From positions 7,107 through 71,106 of the IMG/VR virus record IMGVR_UViG_3300020045_001617: a DNA stretch of 64,000 nt; one strand, given 5' to 3'. The stretch's first letter is position 1. Each line of letters begins with the position of its first letter. The notes below the pieces were generated by a model. It was not told where the DNA came from. It searched no databases and saw nothing but the letters and a program-made list of their open reading frames with translations. Below, piece after piece: positions 1 through 59,103 of the stretch. The DNA comes from a virus. Taxonomy: Duplodnaviria; Caudoviricetes. A program made the translations under genes and the position numbers.

Positions 1-540
1 GCGAACAAGGCGGCTGTAATTGCAGCACTGGAAGCGGTCGGTGAAGAGAAGTGGGGCAACAAGGAAAAGTACAAGACCATCGCAAAGAAAGACCCCAAGC
101 GCGTCCAGTACCGCAAGGGCGACTACTTCACCGACAAGGACGACGTTCCGTACAAGGGATACGACGGTGCAATGGTTGTCCCCGGCTATGGTCCCGGTGG
201 TACCAAGAACCCGAAGCGTCCGGCAATCATGGACCGGAAGAAGAACTGGGTCTGGAATCCTGACAAAGGGGCTGAGAACGTCGGCAAGATTCTCGATGTC
301 TGCTACAGCGGCGTATACGCCGATGTTCGCGTCGAGTTTTACCCGGTGGACGGCGCTGACGCGGGCGGGGACGGCATCTTTTCTGCCATCCAGTTGATCC
401 GGTCGCGTCAGACCGGCGACAAGATGTCGGGCGGATACCGTGTTGACGACAGCGACGCGGATGAGTTCGAGGATCTGGAAGACGACCTCGAAGATGACGA
501 TGCAGCATCGTCAGACAGCGACGACGATCTGTTCGGCTGA
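1..540 (+). CDS. Single-stranded DNA-binding protein (DUF2815/Gp2.5-like), 5'-truncated by window edge
   Basis: Frame 1 is open from base 1. Long acidic C-terminal tail ending DDDLFG; lies directly upstream of the DNA polymerase as in Chi-like phages. Confidence 0.75.
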   Translation, partial: ANKAAVIAALEAVGEEKWGNKEKYKTIAKKDPKRVQYRKGDYFTDKDDVPYKGYDGAMVVPGYGPGGTKNPKRPAIMDRKKNWVWNPDKGAENVGKILDVCYSGVYADVRVEFYPVDGADAGGDGIFSAIQLIRSRQTGDKMSGGYRVDDSDADEFEDLEDDLEDDDAASSDSDDDLFG

Positions 541-568
541 ACGGACACCTGAATAGTCGTTTTCGTTG

Positions 569-608
569 GGCGGGGGTGGTTTTGGAAGGCTGCCCCCGCC
601 GCTTTTTA
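569..608 (+). terminator. Putative intrinsic terminator between SSB and polymerase
   Basis: GGCGGGGG...CCCCCGCC stem followed by a T-run (gcttttt). Confidence 0.55.
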
Positions 609-623
609 TGTCGTAGGATTGAT

Positions 624-2582
624 ATGCTAACCAAGGCCCAACTTCTCAGCTTCACCGGCCTTACGCCGCCCGATCCCGAAGCCGACAACGTCCTGATGAT
701 GGACATCGAAACCTACCAGAACTTCTTCTGTATCAGTTTCTACTGTCCGCGCCGTGACATTGTGAAATCGTTCTACCTGACACAGGATAGCGGTGAACTT
801 CCGTATGATCGCATCTACGCGATTATGAAGAAGAACACGATTGTCACGTTCAATGGGGCAAGTTACGATATTCCGATGCTGTATTACGCGCTGACTGGCG
901 CGAACAACCAGCAACTCATGGACGCTTCGAACTACATCATCACCAAGCGCGTGATGCCGTGGATATTCGCGCGTGAGAAGGGTTTCCGCATCCCAGACAT
1001 TGACCACATCGACATTATCGAAGTGGCACCCGGCATGGTCGGCCTGAAGTTATACGGCGCTCGGGCGATGTGCCCCAAGCTACAAGACCTCCCATATCCG
1101 GTTGGCGCGACTCTCACACCAGAGCAGATGCAGAACATCTTGGCCTACAACATAAACGACCTTCATGTCACTTATGCGCTTTACCTGAGCCTTATCGAGC
1201 AGATACGCCTGCGTGAAACGATGCAGCCGATGGCAGGCGTCGATCAATGGGGTCGCAAGGTTGACCTTCGCTCGAAGAAGGACGCGCAGATCGCGTCAGC
1301 AGTGCTTCGCTACCAGATGGAGCAGCGCGACGGCGTAGCGCCGCAGAAGCCTACCGACATCACGCCGGGGATGCGCTTCAAGTACGATGCGCCTGATATG
1401 CTGGTCTACGAGACGCCCGAGATGCAGCAGGTGCTTGCCGACGTGCTTGCCTCAGACTTCGAGGTTCCGCCAGACGGCAAGAAACTGATGCTGCCGAAAG
1501 CCTTGGAAGGCCGCGACGTTCGGATTGGCGACTGTGTTTATCGTATGGGCATTGGCGGTCTGCACTCCCAAGAGGAAAGTGTATCGCACATCGCTGACGA
1601 AGAAACGATGATCGTGGATCGAGATTTTGAATCTTTTTATCCGAATATGATGCTGAATTTCCACTGGTGCCCGAGACATTTAGGAAATGTATTCTTTGAA
1701 GTCTTTTCTGGTATTGTTGAGACACGACTAAAAGCAAAAGCCAATAAAGACATGGTTGTTGCAAATTCTCTCAAGGTGGTGGTCAACAGTACGTTCGGCT
1801 TGACCGGATCGAAGTATTCATTCCTCTACGACCCCAAGGTGATGATCCAAGTCACGCTGACCGGACAGTTGATCCTGCTTTATATGATCGAGCGCGCCCA
1901 TGTCGCGGGCATCAAGGTTGTGTCGGCAAACACGGACGGCGTGGTCGTCAAGATACACCCCGACCAGTACGACGCATGGAATGCGATCATCGCAGAAGTC
2001 GAGGAAAAGACGCGCATCAAGACTGAGGAGACTCGCTACAGCGCGCTCTATTCCCGCGATGTAAACAACTACATCGCCGTCAAGACGGACGGCAAGGTGA
2101 AGATGAAGGGTGCCTATTCGCAGACCGGTGTGCAGAAGAACCCCATGTTCGAAATCTGCAACAAGGCCGTGGTCGAATACATCACCAACGGAACACCGCT
2201 CGAAGACACGATTTCCGCCTGTGAAAACATCCGCCAGTTCGTCGGGGTTCGTACTGTGAAGGGTGGGGCGATCTACCGGGATGACGGTGACTATTTGGGC
2301 AAGGTCGTGCGCTGGTACTTTTCAAAGGGCAGTGACGGTTTCATTCGCACCGTCGATACTGGCGACCGTACCGGCAACTGGAAGACTGTTGCCAAGACTT
2401 CGGGCTGCAAGCCTCTCATGGATCTGCCAGAGGGTTTCCCAGATGACGTGGACATCGACCGGTACGTGCAGGAGGCGCGGGAGATTCTGATGGACATCAA
2501 CTGTGTTCAGCGACCCGACCCAGTGAAGCCCATCCGCCTGTATAAGTGGAGCGCGCCGCTGTTCTGGGCGTTGGCGGTATGA
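624..2582 (+). CDS. DNA polymerase, family B type, with N-terminal 3'-5' exonuclease
   Basis: Exo motifs DIETY and FNGASYD; polymerase motifs DFESFYP, KVVVNSTFG and ANTDG. ATG at 624 follows an AGGA RBS. Confidence 0.85.
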   Translation: MLTKAQLLSFTGLTPPDPEADNVLMMDIETYQNFFCISFYCPRRDIVKSFYLTQDSGELPYDRIYAIMKKNTIVTFNGASYDIPMLYYALTGANNQQLMDASNYIITKRVMPWIFAREKGFRIPDIDHIDIIEVAPGMVGLKLYGARAMCPKLQDLPYPVGATLTPEQMQNILAYNINDLHVTYALYLSLIEQIRLRETMQPMAGVDQWGRKVDLRSKKDAQIASAVLRYQMEQRDGVAPQKPTDITPGMRFKYDAPDMLVYETPEMQQVLADVLASDFEVPPDGKKLMLPKALEGRDVRIGDCVYRMGIGGLHSQEESVSHIADEETMIVDRDFESFYPNMMLNFHWCPRHLGNVFFEVFSGIVETRLKAKANKDMVVANSLKVVVNSTFGLTGSKYSFLYDPKVMIQVTLTGQLILLYMIERAHVAGIKVVSANTDGVVVKIHPDQYDAWNAIIAEVEEKTRIKTEETRYSALYSRDVNNYIAVKTDGKVKMKGAYSQTGVQKNPMFEICNKAVVEYITNGTPLEDTISACENIRQFVGVRTVKGGAIYRDDGDYLGKVVRWYFSKGSDGFIRTVDTGDRTGNWKTVAKTSGCKPLMDLPEGFPDDVDIDRYVQEAREILMDINCVQRPDPVKPIRLYKWSAPLFWALAV

Positions 2583-2911
2583 GCGCGGACGGCGAAGACT
2601 GGGATTTCCAGCCAAGTCGCAGCGAACGCGAAGCACCCATCGAAGACGACGTGGTAGCATTTGCGGAGAACAGAGGCTGGCTTGTTCGCAAGATGCAGTA
2701 TCCGGGTCGCAGAGGCTGTCCTGACAGGTTCTTCTGGAAGTCTGGTAAACTGGTCATCATGGAACTAAAGCGGCAGAACAAGAAGCGCGCAGACCCGACA
2801 CAGGTTCGCGAGCATGAGCGATACGCAGCAGCCGGTTGGACGGTCCACATCGTGAATGACCGCGACCAAGCTGCGCGGCTACTCGGATACGAGAGGTATG
2901 AGCGTGACTGA
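2579..2911 (+). CDS. VRR-NUC domain nuclease
   Basis: E..IE...V.FA..RGW.V.K...PG.RG.PDR....G....MELK pattern; ATGA overlap with the polymerase stop. Confidence 0.85.
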   Translation: MSADGEDWDFQPSRSEREAPIEDDVVAFAENRGWLVRKMQYPGRRGCPDRFFWKSGKLVIMELKRQNKKRADPTQVREHERYAAAGWTVHIVNDRDQAARLLGYERYERD

Positions 2912-57975: not shown

Positions 57976-58124
57976 GGCGAGTCCATAAACGACTCTTCTA
58001 TTTGCCAGCGCTCATCTGAAAATTTATCGGCATACTCTTGCGCGTTTTCCTTTGTCGAAAATACACCACTAAATTCCCGTTCAGAATGAAAGTTTATGCG
58101 ATAAAGAATATAGATCGTTTCCAT
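57972..58124 (-). CDS. Hypothetical early protein (50 aa; not in ORF track)
   Basis: METIYILY...SGVFSTKENAQEYA; GGGAGTC RBS. Confidence 0.6.
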   Translation of the reverse strand: METIYILYRINFHSEREFSGVFSTKENAQEYADKFSDERWQIEESFMDSP

Positions 58125-58137
58125 TTTCCCGACTCCC

Positions 58138-58746
58138 TTAAATCGCCTGAATTACGCGGTAACCGATAGCGGTCAAATACGTGAGTCCGGCATCGCGGTG
58201 ACAATCCGAATAACCGCTAATCACCCTGCCCGACTCTTCCGCTTCCCGCGCCATGCGACGCGCGTCGCGTTGCACTTGCTCCCACTCTTCACCTTGCGGG
58301 AAGCTGGTTGCATCGCCCCCAATTGCCTTGCGCCATTGTTCCACGGCCATATCGCGCCAATAGTAGGAGTCGCGGCGCTCCCATTGACCGGAGTCCGTGT
58401 TGCGCTCCCATTGGCCATAGTTTGCCAGTGTGTAGCCATTGCGAGGCTTGTACGTAGCAGGGAAGCACGGCTTGCCCTTGGGGGGCTTTATGCGAGCGCC
58501 GCAATGGTCGGTCATTTCATGGCCGTCTATCGACATGCCGGATAGCGCCGCGCTGAATTTATCGTAACCATAACCGCCTGCCCTTGCGTGCTGGAATCCG
58601 GCCTTATCGTCGTGAACGTTAACAAGGCAAGATCCGCCCTTGCCCCATACGGCTTTAACCGTCGCGACGTGTTCGCCCTTGCGGTTAAGCACGACATAAG
58701 CGGCCACGGATTTACCGGCGGCGCTATCAGATACATAATTCGACAT
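58138..58746 (-). CDS. Hypothetical early protein (202 aa)
   Basis: AGGYGYDKFSAAL motif. Confidence 0.7.
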   Translation of the reverse strand: MSNYVSDSAAGKSVAAYVVLNRKGEHVATVKAVWGKGGSCLVNVHDDKAGFQHARAGGYGYDKFSAALSGMSIDGHEMTDHCGARIKPPKGKPCFPATYKPRNGYTLANYGQWERNTDSGQWERRDSYYWRDMAVEQWRKAIGGDATSFPQGEEWEQVQRDARRMAREAEESGRVISGYSDCHRDAGLTYLTAIGYRVIQAI

Positions 58747-58789
58747 GGTAGTGTTTCCCTGAAGATATAGTGAAAGTTAGGCGGTGAGA

Positions 58790-58897
58790 TTAAGCCGTCG
58801 CGTATGCAAGCAACGCGAAGCTATAAAGGCCGATTGCCAGCGCCACGATTAGCGCGATGAACTGGCGAAGCGTTACGGGTTGCGGTGTGTCGTTCAT
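58790..58897 (-). CDS. Small membrane peptide (35 aa; not in ORF track)
   Basis: Single TM segment; ATGA overlap with the upstream gene. Confidence 0.45.
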   Translation of the reverse strand: MNDTPQPVTLRQFIALIVALAIGLYSFALLAYATA

Positions 58898-59103
58898 GAG
58901 AACATCCCTTCAAATTCGCCCACCGGAGCCACCGGAGCCACCGCAGGCGCGTAACATGCAACACATGCTCCCGTGCTGGCGTATCGCGTGCCATTGTGTC
59001 CCTTGCGGCATGGCGCGCCCTGATAACGGATTGCTTGCGTCGCGATTGCCGTTGCGCGTGCTTTATCGGCTGGTCGTCCGGGTTTGCGCTTTGGTGTTGT
59101 CAT
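58894..59103 (-). CDS. Small AT-hook-like + zinc-finger protein
   Basis: RKPGRP; PCRKGHNGTRYASTGACVAC; ends EFEGMFS. Confidence 0.65.
   Translation of the reverse strand: MTTPKRKPGRPADKARATAIATQAIRYQGAPCRKGHNGTRYASTGACVACYAPAVAPVAPVGEFEGMFS

Follow-up and report, generated by a model that had tools for sequence, protein, structure and literature searches.

Across a large set of phages of the lambda-portal, Enc34/Chi type (Casjensviridae-like), unrelated proteins share a short acidic tag which, with a probability of about 0.5, is a short linear motif that docks them to a single common reader. In the temperate phage studied here the tag reads F-x-x-[MIL]-F and is found at flexible ends or in linkers of proteins that act on phage DNA.

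A terminal peptide tag in the window

The pattern [DEN]F[DEGS]x[MIL]F[DEGS], proposed in the first-pass annotation, was scanned in six frames of the window, that is, the whole 64-kb stretch of phage DNA that was analyzed. All eight matches are in frame with real genes. Five directly abut a stop codon, two lie near an N-terminus (from residue 6 of the terminase small subunit, TerS, and from residue 4 of the portal) and the remaining one is internal to the portal (18870-18890). As a control, each protein was shuffled 1500 times and scored with [DEN]F..[MILV]F at N- and C-termini. Seven terminal matches were observed against 0.05 expected (0.03 N-terminal and 0.02 C-terminal), a number reached in 0 of 1500 shuffles. 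The terminal motif is real, and the earlier claim of seven unrelated proteins tagged at a terminus is confirmed, although seven was too low a count: with looser copies (integrase, GapR, primase-helicase linker, SSB and one further protein) about 12 proteins of the phage carry the tag. Copies differ in their codons (TTC/TTT, GAG/GAA, ATG/CTG/CTT/ATC/ATT), indicating conservation at the peptide level, as first proposed. The tags are set in disordered N- or C-terminal tails or in interdomain linkers. The carriers in the window are as follows; C-terminal sequences end at the stop codon.

1..540, plus strand: 3' part of an Enc34/T7-gp2.5-type SSB gene (Pfam Enc34_ssDNA-bd, PF10991) starting 158 nt upstream of the window; short tail DSDDDLFG at 520-537
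3461..4870, plus strand: DEAD/SNF2-type helicase (Pfam DEAD, Helicase_C, SNF2-rel_dom); C-terminal tag DFEAMFS at 4847-4867, with 0 residues between tag and stop
9584..10738, plus strand: tyrosine integrase (Pfam); degenerate C-terminal tag DDWQ-LAGMLE at 10718-10735
11543..12298, plus strand: TerS (DUF1441/phrog_141); N-terminal tag MTDSD-DFSDIFD-D at 11558-11578, then a Pro/Ala linker and a GRPR stretch
18180..19895, plus strand: lambda-family portal (Pfam Phage_portal_2, residues 51-430); N-terminal tag MGG-EFDHLFD-D at 18189-18209, preceding a low-complexity leader of about 40 aa
22793..23059, plus strand: 88-aa late protein directly 3' of the major capsid gene, the position of lambda FI; weak acidic tail GGDDLAAALD
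41749..42405, minus strand: DNA methyltransferase (phrog_799, E 1.5e-50); C-terminal tag NFDALFG at 41752-41772, from the pattern scan
42402..42770, minus strand: 122-aa protein of unknown function; C-terminal tag DFGSMFE at 42405-42425
43187..43477, minus strand: GapR-like nucleoid protein (Pfam GapR_DNA-bd); tail AIGLMFE at 43190-43207
49123..49476, minus strand: 117-aa protein of unknown function; C-terminal tag EFESIFD at 49126-49146
58894..59103, minus strand: 69-aa protein; C-terminal tag EFEGMFS at 58897-58917

The functions first assigned to the helicase, methyltransferase, TerS, portal, SSB, GapR and integrase hold, as do the partial matches at the ends of the last three (DDDLFG, IGLMFE and LAGMLE). 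An in-frame stop six codons upstream of the motif fixes the TerS start, and the 69-aa gene is supported as real by weak matches to PHROG families (phrog_23777, E 1.4e-7). The primase-helicase, encoded just outside the window on its upstream side, has an additional copy, DDFAGMFDD, in the linker between PriCT2 and VapE.

Spelling of the tag among relatives

Judged by comparison with related sequences, F-x-x-[MIL]-F is not the motif itself but the dialect in which one lineage spells a family-wide tag. In the family-wide form, hydrophobic-x-x-[LM]-[LIF] comes after an acidic run and usually precedes one small residue, often Gly. Relatives end in LIG, LLG, MLG or DVL, and Chi-like phages in DEV or DDL. 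When C-terminal 3-mers were counted per genome without a preset motif, each dialect ending was found on 4-9 proteins per genome against 0.02-0.05 expected: LIG on 7-8 (0.03 expected), LLG on 8 (0.04), DEV on 9 (0.02) and DDL on 6 (0.03); the shorter ending LG occurs on 13 (0.65). At the C-terminus these dialect 3-mers exceed their internal frequency 25- to 125-fold. Tag similarity scores 1.26 within genomes versus 0.78 between them, a difference attained in 0 of 2000 label permutations. Dialect does not track host family, different dialects being found inside one host family. In Chi-like phages the portal lacks the tag, while replication proteins and TerS carry it and tails are strictly C-terminal (DEV).

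Orthologues of the portal, TerS, integrase, excisionase, the 117-aa family, a methylase family and the primase linker keep the tag in the local spelling. The expectation that orthologues would retain it was thus borne out for TerS, portal, integrase, primase-helicase and several small proteins; it failed for the SNF2 helicase, whose orthologues in alphaproteobacterial relatives (G008, G010, G012, G013, G015, G017 and RcSalem) lack the tag, which makes this copy a recent gain. At the place of the methyltransferase, the closest relative (G001) encodes a non-homologous methylase body of which only the last 15 residues, ending in DNFDSLFG, are similar: the body was swapped, yet the tag was retained. 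The 122-aa protein ends in DDFEGMFE in G001 and in DDDFGDLLG in G006, and the 117-aa family, present in nine genomes, carries its own genome's dialect at the end in eight of them, with a tandem double tag in some. Such double tags occur on several proteins, as would be expected if avidity for an oligomeric reader matters.

Looser copies vary similarly. Orthologous integrases end in DPFLDMLG, EEFARLIG, LELARIIG, DEFSQLLG or DDEFAALMG, and the usual GapR end, A[IL]G[LM][IL], is extended or altered toward the local dialect (MFE in this phage and G001, LDHLIG in G009, ALLV in RcSalem). Per genome, the SSB tail equals or approximates that of a second conserved protein and has its last residues in common with the main tag. 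Relatives' proteins at the position of the 88-aa protein carry their own genome's SSB-type short tail (DDPLN, EDMGL, DDVL or DEDL; DEV in Siskin), while the tail in this phage is a loose match only.

The most widespread copy is that of the portal, where about 60 relatives have hydrophobic-x-x-[LM]-[LIF]-[GDS] at the same site. TerS of 32 related loci carries an N-terminal tag in the local dialect, and in 32 of 32 loci the two tags agree in having F or an aliphatic residue at position 1. The dialect with F at position 5 arose twice (in the clade of this phage and L006, and in L050, where a third protein ends in FEDLF), and portal and TerS both changed each time. Portal and TerS tags switch together, an observation resting on few independent switches (2-3): with three events at position 1 and two at position 5, sign tests give p 0.25-0.5, and significance is unreachable with so few.

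A putative common reader and its alternatives

From the motif, its placement, conservation and co-variation we infer the existence and role of a single reader, in which a hydrophobic pocket flanked by basic residues would bind all tagged proteins and gather them at one place on replicating or packaging DNA. Its clients would be proteins acting on phage DNA in replication (primase-helicase, SNF2 helicase, SSB and its partner protein), modification (methyltransferase), integration (integrase, and excisionase in relatives), nucleoid organization (GapR) and packaging (TerS, portal), together with three small proteins that have no assigned function. With portal, integrase and methylase among them, these clients are diverse, and one site of action is not obvious. 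The original proposal of a common address peptide is consistent with the disordered placement, the retention in orthologues, the genome-uniform spelling and the portal/TerS co-change, but its F-x-x-[MIL]-F form applies to one lineage only. Since each genome keeps to one spelling, which differs from those of related genomes and does not track host family, a phage-encoded, co-evolving reader is more likely than a conserved host protein.

Neither a clamp gene nor a conserved candidate of suitable size is recognizable in the phage or its relatives. DNA polymerase is argued against as reader by the exchange of family A and family B polymerases between relatives sharing the LLG dialect, and the SSB fold is argued against by tests. 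Binding in cis is disfavored as well: AlphaFold does not dock the primase-helicase tag on the protein's own domains, and residues 321-385 have a pLDDT of 33-35 without a peak at the tag, which is thus predicted to be flexible.

It is unlikely that the tag is instead a degron through which a host AAA+ protease or the phage S49 head protease would limit or time the levels of integrase, excisionase, methylases and the proteins of replication and packaging. Degrons are typically terminal and disordered with a hydrophobic tip, integrase and excisionase are classic unstable proteins, a protease encoded by the phage could co-evolve with the tag, and lambda has both a portal N-terminal leader of the same form (TIPTLLGPDG, annotated as removed) and a gpC/Nu3 C-terminus reading AVNDLLNTPV. 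However, the tag is acidic, whereas to our knowledge no acidic tag has been described for ClpX, ClpA, Lon or FtsH; its independence of host family speaks against a host protease, and of the protein families compared, the head protease gains least in similarity between genomes that share a dialect (delta 1.4). Moreover, the essential primase-helicase (internally tagged), SSB and portal would be odd targets for destruction. Host-independent spelling also bears on the host beta sliding clamp (DnaN), whose conserved pocket leaves genome-specific dialects, and several dialects in one host family, unexplained. That the tag is an unusual clamp-binding motif by which phage proteins are tethered to clamps remaining on replicated DNA, as with MuC of phage Mu, is distinctly unlikely, even though clamp-binding motifs, too, are located at the very N- or C-terminus and have [LM]F or L-x-L as their last residues, and the tags LSDLF, FDDLF and FDALF match positions 3-5 of QL[SD]LF. 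Mu MuC carries N- and C-terminal motifs, QHDLF and QPDLF, and Mor requires only DLF (PMC12867686). Any clamp used would be the host's, as the phage lacks a clamp gene of its own, but clamp clients in bacteria with related prophages have canonical Gln-first motifs or forms unlike the tag (Hda starting QLPLDL, QLAFSL, QMALPL or QLAFDL; DinB ending EQATLPL, PQLTFGI or PADLLSLI). No phage tag has Gln at position 1, which is always hydrophobic with a strong acidic flank, and when five host genomes were scanned, [DE][DE]F..[LIMF][LIMF]G before a stop occurred in prophage or mobile-element genes only.

A similar peptide, short, amphipathic and acidic, serves as the capsid-targeting sequence of T4, and packaged methylase-helicase proteins such as P1 DarB exist. 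These parallels, the wide distribution of the portal copy and its location, in lambda, within a cleaved leader would suit a procapsid-targeting signal that binds capsid protein, scaffold or portal inside the assembling head, allowing tagged proteins to be packaged and injected along with the DNA; we consider this highly improbable, TerS, SSB and an 839-aa, presumably hexameric, primase-helicase being implausible cargo and the Chi-like portal lacking the tag although replication proteins and TerS have it. Every carrier binds DNA, and the acidic tails of T7-type SSBs sit in the DNA-binding groove of neighboring molecules in crystals (PMC5686142). Each tail might thus fold back on its own DNA-binding surface as an autoinhibitory DNA mimic without a common reader. 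Unrelated DNA-binding folds, however, would neither require the same hydrophobic residues nor change them jointly per genome, and together with the undocked primase-helicase tag this makes autoinhibition very improbable indeed. A by-product of DNA-level constraints or chance has a negligible likelihood. Many C-terminal tags in relatives end GGA/GGG/GGT-TGA, overlapping the next gene's start codon, many have GAG (part of the Shine-Dalgarno sequence) about 9-12 nt upstream, which could reflect translational coupling, and the G-S of DFGSMFE in this phage overlaps the next gene's GGGAGT ribosome-binding site. Yet most tags of this phage have no overlapping downstream gene, the hydrophobic positions are unaccounted for, and N-terminal and internal tags share the sequence without such constraint, which largely refutes the DNA-level reading; chance is excluded by the shuffles and the C-terminal 3-mer scan.

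Comparison with known docking systems

Under the docking-motif reading, several known peptides invite comparison. The lambda gpB leader MKTPTIPTLLGPDG, annotated as removed, has a hydrophobic-x-x-LLG form at the site of the portal tag; we know of no function for it. Unlike this leader and the T4 capsid-targeting sequence, the tag is carried mostly by early DNA enzymes and not by head proteins. The bacterial SSB tip DDDIPF likewise combines an acidic run and a hydrophobic tip into a hub contact, but with reversed polarity, one tail serving many partners there and many tails presumably one partner here, and the phage tip is neither IPF nor always terminal. The bacterial beta-clamp motif (QL[SD]LF or QLxLxL, as in Mu MuC and Mor) is also a short peptide at either terminus with [LM]F or LL at positions 4-5 (PMC12867686), and differs in its Gln at position 1, absent from the acidic-flanked phage tag and canonical in the hosts' own clients.

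While we found no publication describing such a shared tag, the earlier statement that no phage system of this kind has been described was too strong, as T7 and T4 follow the same principle. In T7, the acidic tails of gp2.5 (SSB) and gp4 (primase-helicase) dock on gp5 polymerase, and the gp2.5 tail binds both polymerase and primase-helicase (PMC5686142). The SSB of the present phage is of the T7/Enc34 type, and an acidic, hydrophobic-tipped tail is common to SSB, primase-helicase and other replication proteins. In contrast to T7, the tag here can also act from an N-terminus or a linker, which rules out an essential free carboxylate. In T4, the LDFLF motif binds the sliding clamp gp45 and is found in gp43 (ending EKASLDFLFG), in a DNA ligase loop (EGLDFLFDA), in gp33 (PMC6212786) and in gp55, nearly the same form as NFDALFG, GEFDHLFDD and DDFAGMFDD of this phage. 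Both systems use C-termini and flexible internal loops, and the unrelated DNA enzymes of T4 share one reader. On the other hand, this phage and its relatives lack a recognizable clamp gene, their client set is larger, including TerS, portal, integrase, excisionase and methylases, and the spelling of their tag is lineage-specific.

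Genome context and copies of the tag

The IMG/VR record of this phage, of which the window covers bases 7107-71106, is 71,106 bp long and rated complete. Its nearest cultured relatives are the ~68-kb Rhodobacter capsulatus phages of the RcSalem type (Casjensviridae), which have the same gene order and a helicase of ~52% identity; related prophages are found in Sphingomonas, Sphingopyxis, Bradyrhizobium, Asticcacaulis, Aquamicrobium, Gemmobacter and one Pseudomonas. A replication module (PrimPol-PriCT2-VapE primase-helicase, DUF2800 exonuclease, Enc34/T7-gp2.5-type SSB, family B polymerase, HNH nuclease and DEAD/SNF2 helicase) is followed by the integrase, a DUF1441 small terminase subunit (TerS), the large subunit (TerL), a lambda-type portal, and head and tail genes, while GapR, ribonucleotide reductase and a methyltransferase are encoded in an early region on the opposite strand. 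At the right contig end, genes from ~8 kb leftward recur inverted (window 55307-55821 and 62998-64000), with two copies each of the proteins with start MTTKTYALVIALLD and end AVAQYKKEIARD. This inverted repeat could be a real duplication or an assembly artefact.

The first-pass annotation had described a peptide tag, [DEN]F[DEGS]x[MIL]F[DEGS], at the termini of seven unrelated proteins and spelled with differing codons. Both observations hold. A six-frame search gives eight matches, all in genes, of which five abut a stop codon, two lie at residues 4-12 (TerS and portal) and one is internal to the portal; codon usage differs between the copies. The seven terminal matches compare with 0.05 expected, and none of 1500 per-protein shuffles reaches seven. 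A further copy is carried by the primase-helicase:

Genome 1290-3809 (just upstream of the window), minus strand: primase-helicase, DDFAGMFDD at residue 343, between PriCT2 (226-306) and VapE (517-742)

In an AlphaFold model using 16 orthologues, pLDDT stays at 33-35 over residues 321-385 without rising at the tag, so this copy is modelled as a flexible-linker motif and not as one docked on the protein that carries it. The ends of the integrase (..LAGMLE) and of GapR (..IGLMFE) conform to a general hydrophobic-x-x-M-[LF]-E-stop pattern, and a shortened form ends the SSB (..SSDSDDDLFG) and a conserved 203-aa protein (..DDDIFA). In total, about 12 of ~97 genes carry a tag. The tag is a practical aid to annotation, because it points to small uncharacterised proteins as part of the DNA-handling set.

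The conserved 203-aa protein (L003:4353-4964, upstream of the window) adjoins the primase-helicase gene. Its C-terminal tail equals or resembles that of the SSB in 9/9 genomes (e.g. DDFNIG, DDPLG, DDDFG), and AlphaFold models it as an N-terminal helix of 40 residues joined by a disordered linker to a domain of three helices. A second shared peptide, constant between genomes, follows the OB fold of the SSB (window 1-540; ..ADEF[ED]DL[ED]DD..) and, in most relatives, ends the DUF2800 exonuclease (L003:5724-6923, upstream of the window; ..[SA][DE]F[ED]DLD[DS]-stop).

Lineage spellings of the tag

For comparison, 16 related genomes were fetched whole, RcSalem, Siskin and lambda were assembled from phage records, and genes were called on all. 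Portal N-termini in ~60 relatives follow M-x(1-10)-[DE]-hydrophobic-x-x-[LM]-[LIF]-[GDS]. Each genome has its own spelling, or dialect, which many of its unrelated proteins share.

Tag dialects of related genomes (G numbers; G001 is the closest relative)
G001: ..F..[LM]F[DEG]-stop, resembling the phage studied here
G002: DDFE.[LF]L-stop
G004: ..MLG-stop
G005, G007, G009: ..LIG-stop
G006: ..LLG-stop
G012: F.D[VI]LG
G015: DLEDVL(G)-stop
G013: DL.DL[IL]

When each genome is scanned, without assuming a motif, for the C-terminal 3-mer in greatest excess, such endings are recovered directly (observed, with expected in brackets): LIG 7-8 (0.03), LLG 8 (0.04), LG 13 (0.65) and DVL 4 (0.02), each followed by a stop. 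These 3-mers occur 25-125 times more often at C-termini than in protein interiors. Chi-like phages have the same phenomenon with a shorter tail: in Salmonella phage Siskin, DEV ends nine proteins, including primase, exonuclease, SSB and TerS, and the Pseudomonas-type relative G020 has a terminal DDL dialect.

Recurrent carriers are the primase-helicase, integrase, excisionase, methylases, TerS, portal, GapR and several small protein families. Some genomes add a C-terminal tag to the linker tag of the primase-helicase; the TerS tag is N-terminal in alphaproteobacterial lineages and C-terminal in Chi-like phages. Several C-termini carry tandem pairs of tags. The gene directly after that for the major capsid protein, in the place of lambda FI, encodes a small late protein with its genome's short SSB-type tail at the C-terminus. 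The alphaproteobacterial orthologues of the SNF2 helicase have no tag, which makes that of the present phage a recent gain. The methyltransferases of this phage (window 41749-42405) and of G001 (L099:10749-11381) have unrelated bodies at the same genome position and only their last 15 residues, linker and tag, in common, a pattern that indicates in-frame replacement of the enzyme with retention of the tag. The SSBs of G010 (L181:3460-4308) and G017 (L182:5663-6418) have no short tail and end in long DDRPSRSRSR-like repeats; in these two genomes basic rather than acidic residues precede the tags (ending RRREDLLA, RSVDDLLG).

Tags co-vary within genomes. Among 149 tags called by a single loose rule and compared at positions 4, 5 and 6, likeness is 1.26 within and 0.78 between genomes, a difference reached by 0 of 2000 label permutations. 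Across 32 loci placed on a portal-body tree, the portal tag and the TerS tag have the same state at position 1 (F or aliphatic) in 32/32 cases and agree on F at position 5 in 31/32. The latter dialect has two origins (the clade of this phage and locus L006; locus L050), with portal and TerS both switched each time, and at L050 FEDLF also ends a third protein. A sign test for co-evolution gives p 0.25-0.5 and is underpowered, as only 2-3 independent switches or pairs are available and significance cannot be reached. The dialects offer a natural experiment on motif-network co-evolution and may act as a barrier to mosaic exchange among related phages.

Part of the pattern could arise at the DNA level. 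Many C-terminal tags of relatives end in GGA/GGG/GGT-TGA overlapping the start codon of the next gene, with GAG 9-12 nt upstream, as expected of a Shine-Dalgarno sequence, and one tag of this phage overlaps a GGGAGT ribosome-binding site. Coupling to the next gene may bias tags towards Glu four residues from the end and may affect the third position of the final codon. Neither the hydrophobic positions nor the identical N-terminal and internal copies can be explained in this way. Ala-Ala protein ends are also over-represented in lambda (L202; 8 versus 0.6 expected) and G007 (10 versus 1.3), as well as in G002 and RcSalem (L004, L005), and this excess may be a side effect of GAGGCGGCATGA-type overlaps of stop, ribosome-binding site and start.

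Candidate readers

The peptide had been interpreted as a common address for one hub protein or as a degron. The likeness of tags within genomes and the agreement of portal and TerS partly support a common address, but clamp, polymerase and SSB are each argued against as the hub, or reader. A degron of the AAA+ protease type appears less likely from the form of the tags, which do not match the signals read by host ClpX, ClpA or FtsH (a non-polar C-terminal tripeptide of the LAA type, or basic N-motifs). They are acidic, their last residues are F/L/I followed by G, S, D or E, and some copies are N-terminal or internal.

The tags share with the beta-clamp motif (QL[SD]LF / QLxLxL) a hydrophobic pair at positions 4-5 on flexible termini and linkers ([MIL]F here; LL, LI and ML in relatives). 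Gln at position 1 is absent from all tags of this phage and from ~150 tags of relatives; it is present in host Hda, and in DinB of 2/3 hosts read. The host clamp is an unlikely reader, since DinB and Hda of prophage-bearing hosts are canonically Gln-first or unlike the tag, which never has Gln. Moreover, when five host genomes were searched for the tag pattern, matches lay only in prophage or mobile-element genes. Host taxonomy fails to predict dialect, with F..LM in Sphingomonas versus ..LIG in Sphingopyxis and three dialects among Rhodobacteraceae; this independence of host family favours a phage-encoded reader over a host protein. A phage-encoded gp45-like clamp was discarded in turn, as an HMM search of the whole 71-kb genome gave no PF02916 or PF00712 match at E up to 10 and no conserved unassigned protein of suitable size exists across the relatives.

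DNA polymerase is never a carrier, and tag-rich genomes tend loosely to have the family B enzyme. However, G010, G015 and G017 have a family A polymerase and are tagged nonetheless, and ..LLG is found alongside either family; this exchange under a constant spelling argues against a tip-specific polymerase pocket. The SSB groove is a documented receptor for the acidic part, because in Enc34 ORF6 crystals the acidic tail occupies the groove of a neighbouring molecule (PMC5686142). As reader of the tip, the SSB fold is disfavoured by G005 and G007, which share ..LIG yet have SSBs of different subfamilies without a BLAST match, and the family lies near the bottom of a ranking by delta, the extra similarity between same-dialect genomes (delta 1.9). 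This ranking was dropped as a means of finding the reader, since its top families, small and fast-evolving head, tail and lysis proteins, most likely reflect plain relatedness. The 203-aa protein sharing the SSB tail was also considered and set aside; Foldseek against the PDB returned nothing at E <= 0.001.

By elimination, TerL or the packaging motor becomes a candidate. Polymerases and TerL are the only DNA enzymes never tagged, and TerL is the sole one of these conserved in all relatives. By analogy with lambda it would be the partner of TerS, portal and the FI-position protein, all three tagged; conservation, lack of a tag and this putative partnership make it a possible reader. No particular association of TerL with dialect is seen (delta 6.1). 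The form of the portal tags recurs in the lambda portal leader, MKTPTIPTLLGPDG; the leader is annotated as removed by cleavage, and this cleavage precedes packaging. TerL itself (window 12519-14606) has, throughout its family including lambda gpA, a conserved amphipathic end, hydrophobic-x-x-L-[AG]-x-x-L-[AG]-stop (here ..SLEELGAALG), and in most members a conserved N-terminal ..[IL]E[ED]M[IV].A.AEAVRPPE; both elements are constant across dialects.

One possible reading, with a probability of roughly one in four, is that the tags form a private, co-evolving docking code. A single phage-encoded reader, possibly TerL, would bind every tagged protein, the contact would physically couple replication, methylation, excision and packaging, and lineage spellings would then limit the modules exchangeable between related phages. 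If one reader exists, a dozen DNA transactions would be organised by a single peptide-pocket contact.

Comparison with known docking peptides

Full-text literature searches found no published description of the shared-tag phenomenon. The first-pass view that no phage system of this kind is known is nonetheless too strong, as T4 and T7 are precedents for shared docking peptides (PMC6212786, PMC5686142). The closest in both sequence and logic is T4, whose gp45 clamp is bound by LDFLF motifs located at the C-terminal end of gp43 (EKASLDFLFG), in a loop of the ligase and in gp33 (PMC6212786). The form hydrophobic-D-x-L-F-[GD] occurs in both phages (here C-terminal NFDALFG, N-terminal EFDHLFD and, in the primase-helicase linker, DFAGMFD; in T4 C-terminal SLDFLFG and, in the ligase loop, GLDFLFDA), although a gp45-like clamp is undetected in this 71-kb genome. 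T7 is nearest in lineage, with a gp2.5-type SSB common to both; the acidic tail of gp2.5 binds polymerase and primase-helicase (reviewed in PMC5686142), and the SSB studied here matches PF10991 and has an acidic tail with a hydrophobic end, as in the T7 type. Unlike those of T7, the tags are not strictly C-terminal (N-terminal in TerS and portal, internal in the primase-helicase) and extend one residue beyond the last Phe. In phage Mu, MuC has clamp-binding motifs at both its N- and C-terminus (PMC12867686).

A shared docking peptide is thus an already known kind of system. New here are the lack of a recognisable reader, the lineage dialects, the use of both termini and linkers, and the breadth of clients (TerS, portal, integrase, excisionase, methylases, GapR). 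Should one reader exist, its client range, from priming through integration to packaging, would be far wider than that of the T4 clamp or T7 polymerase tails.
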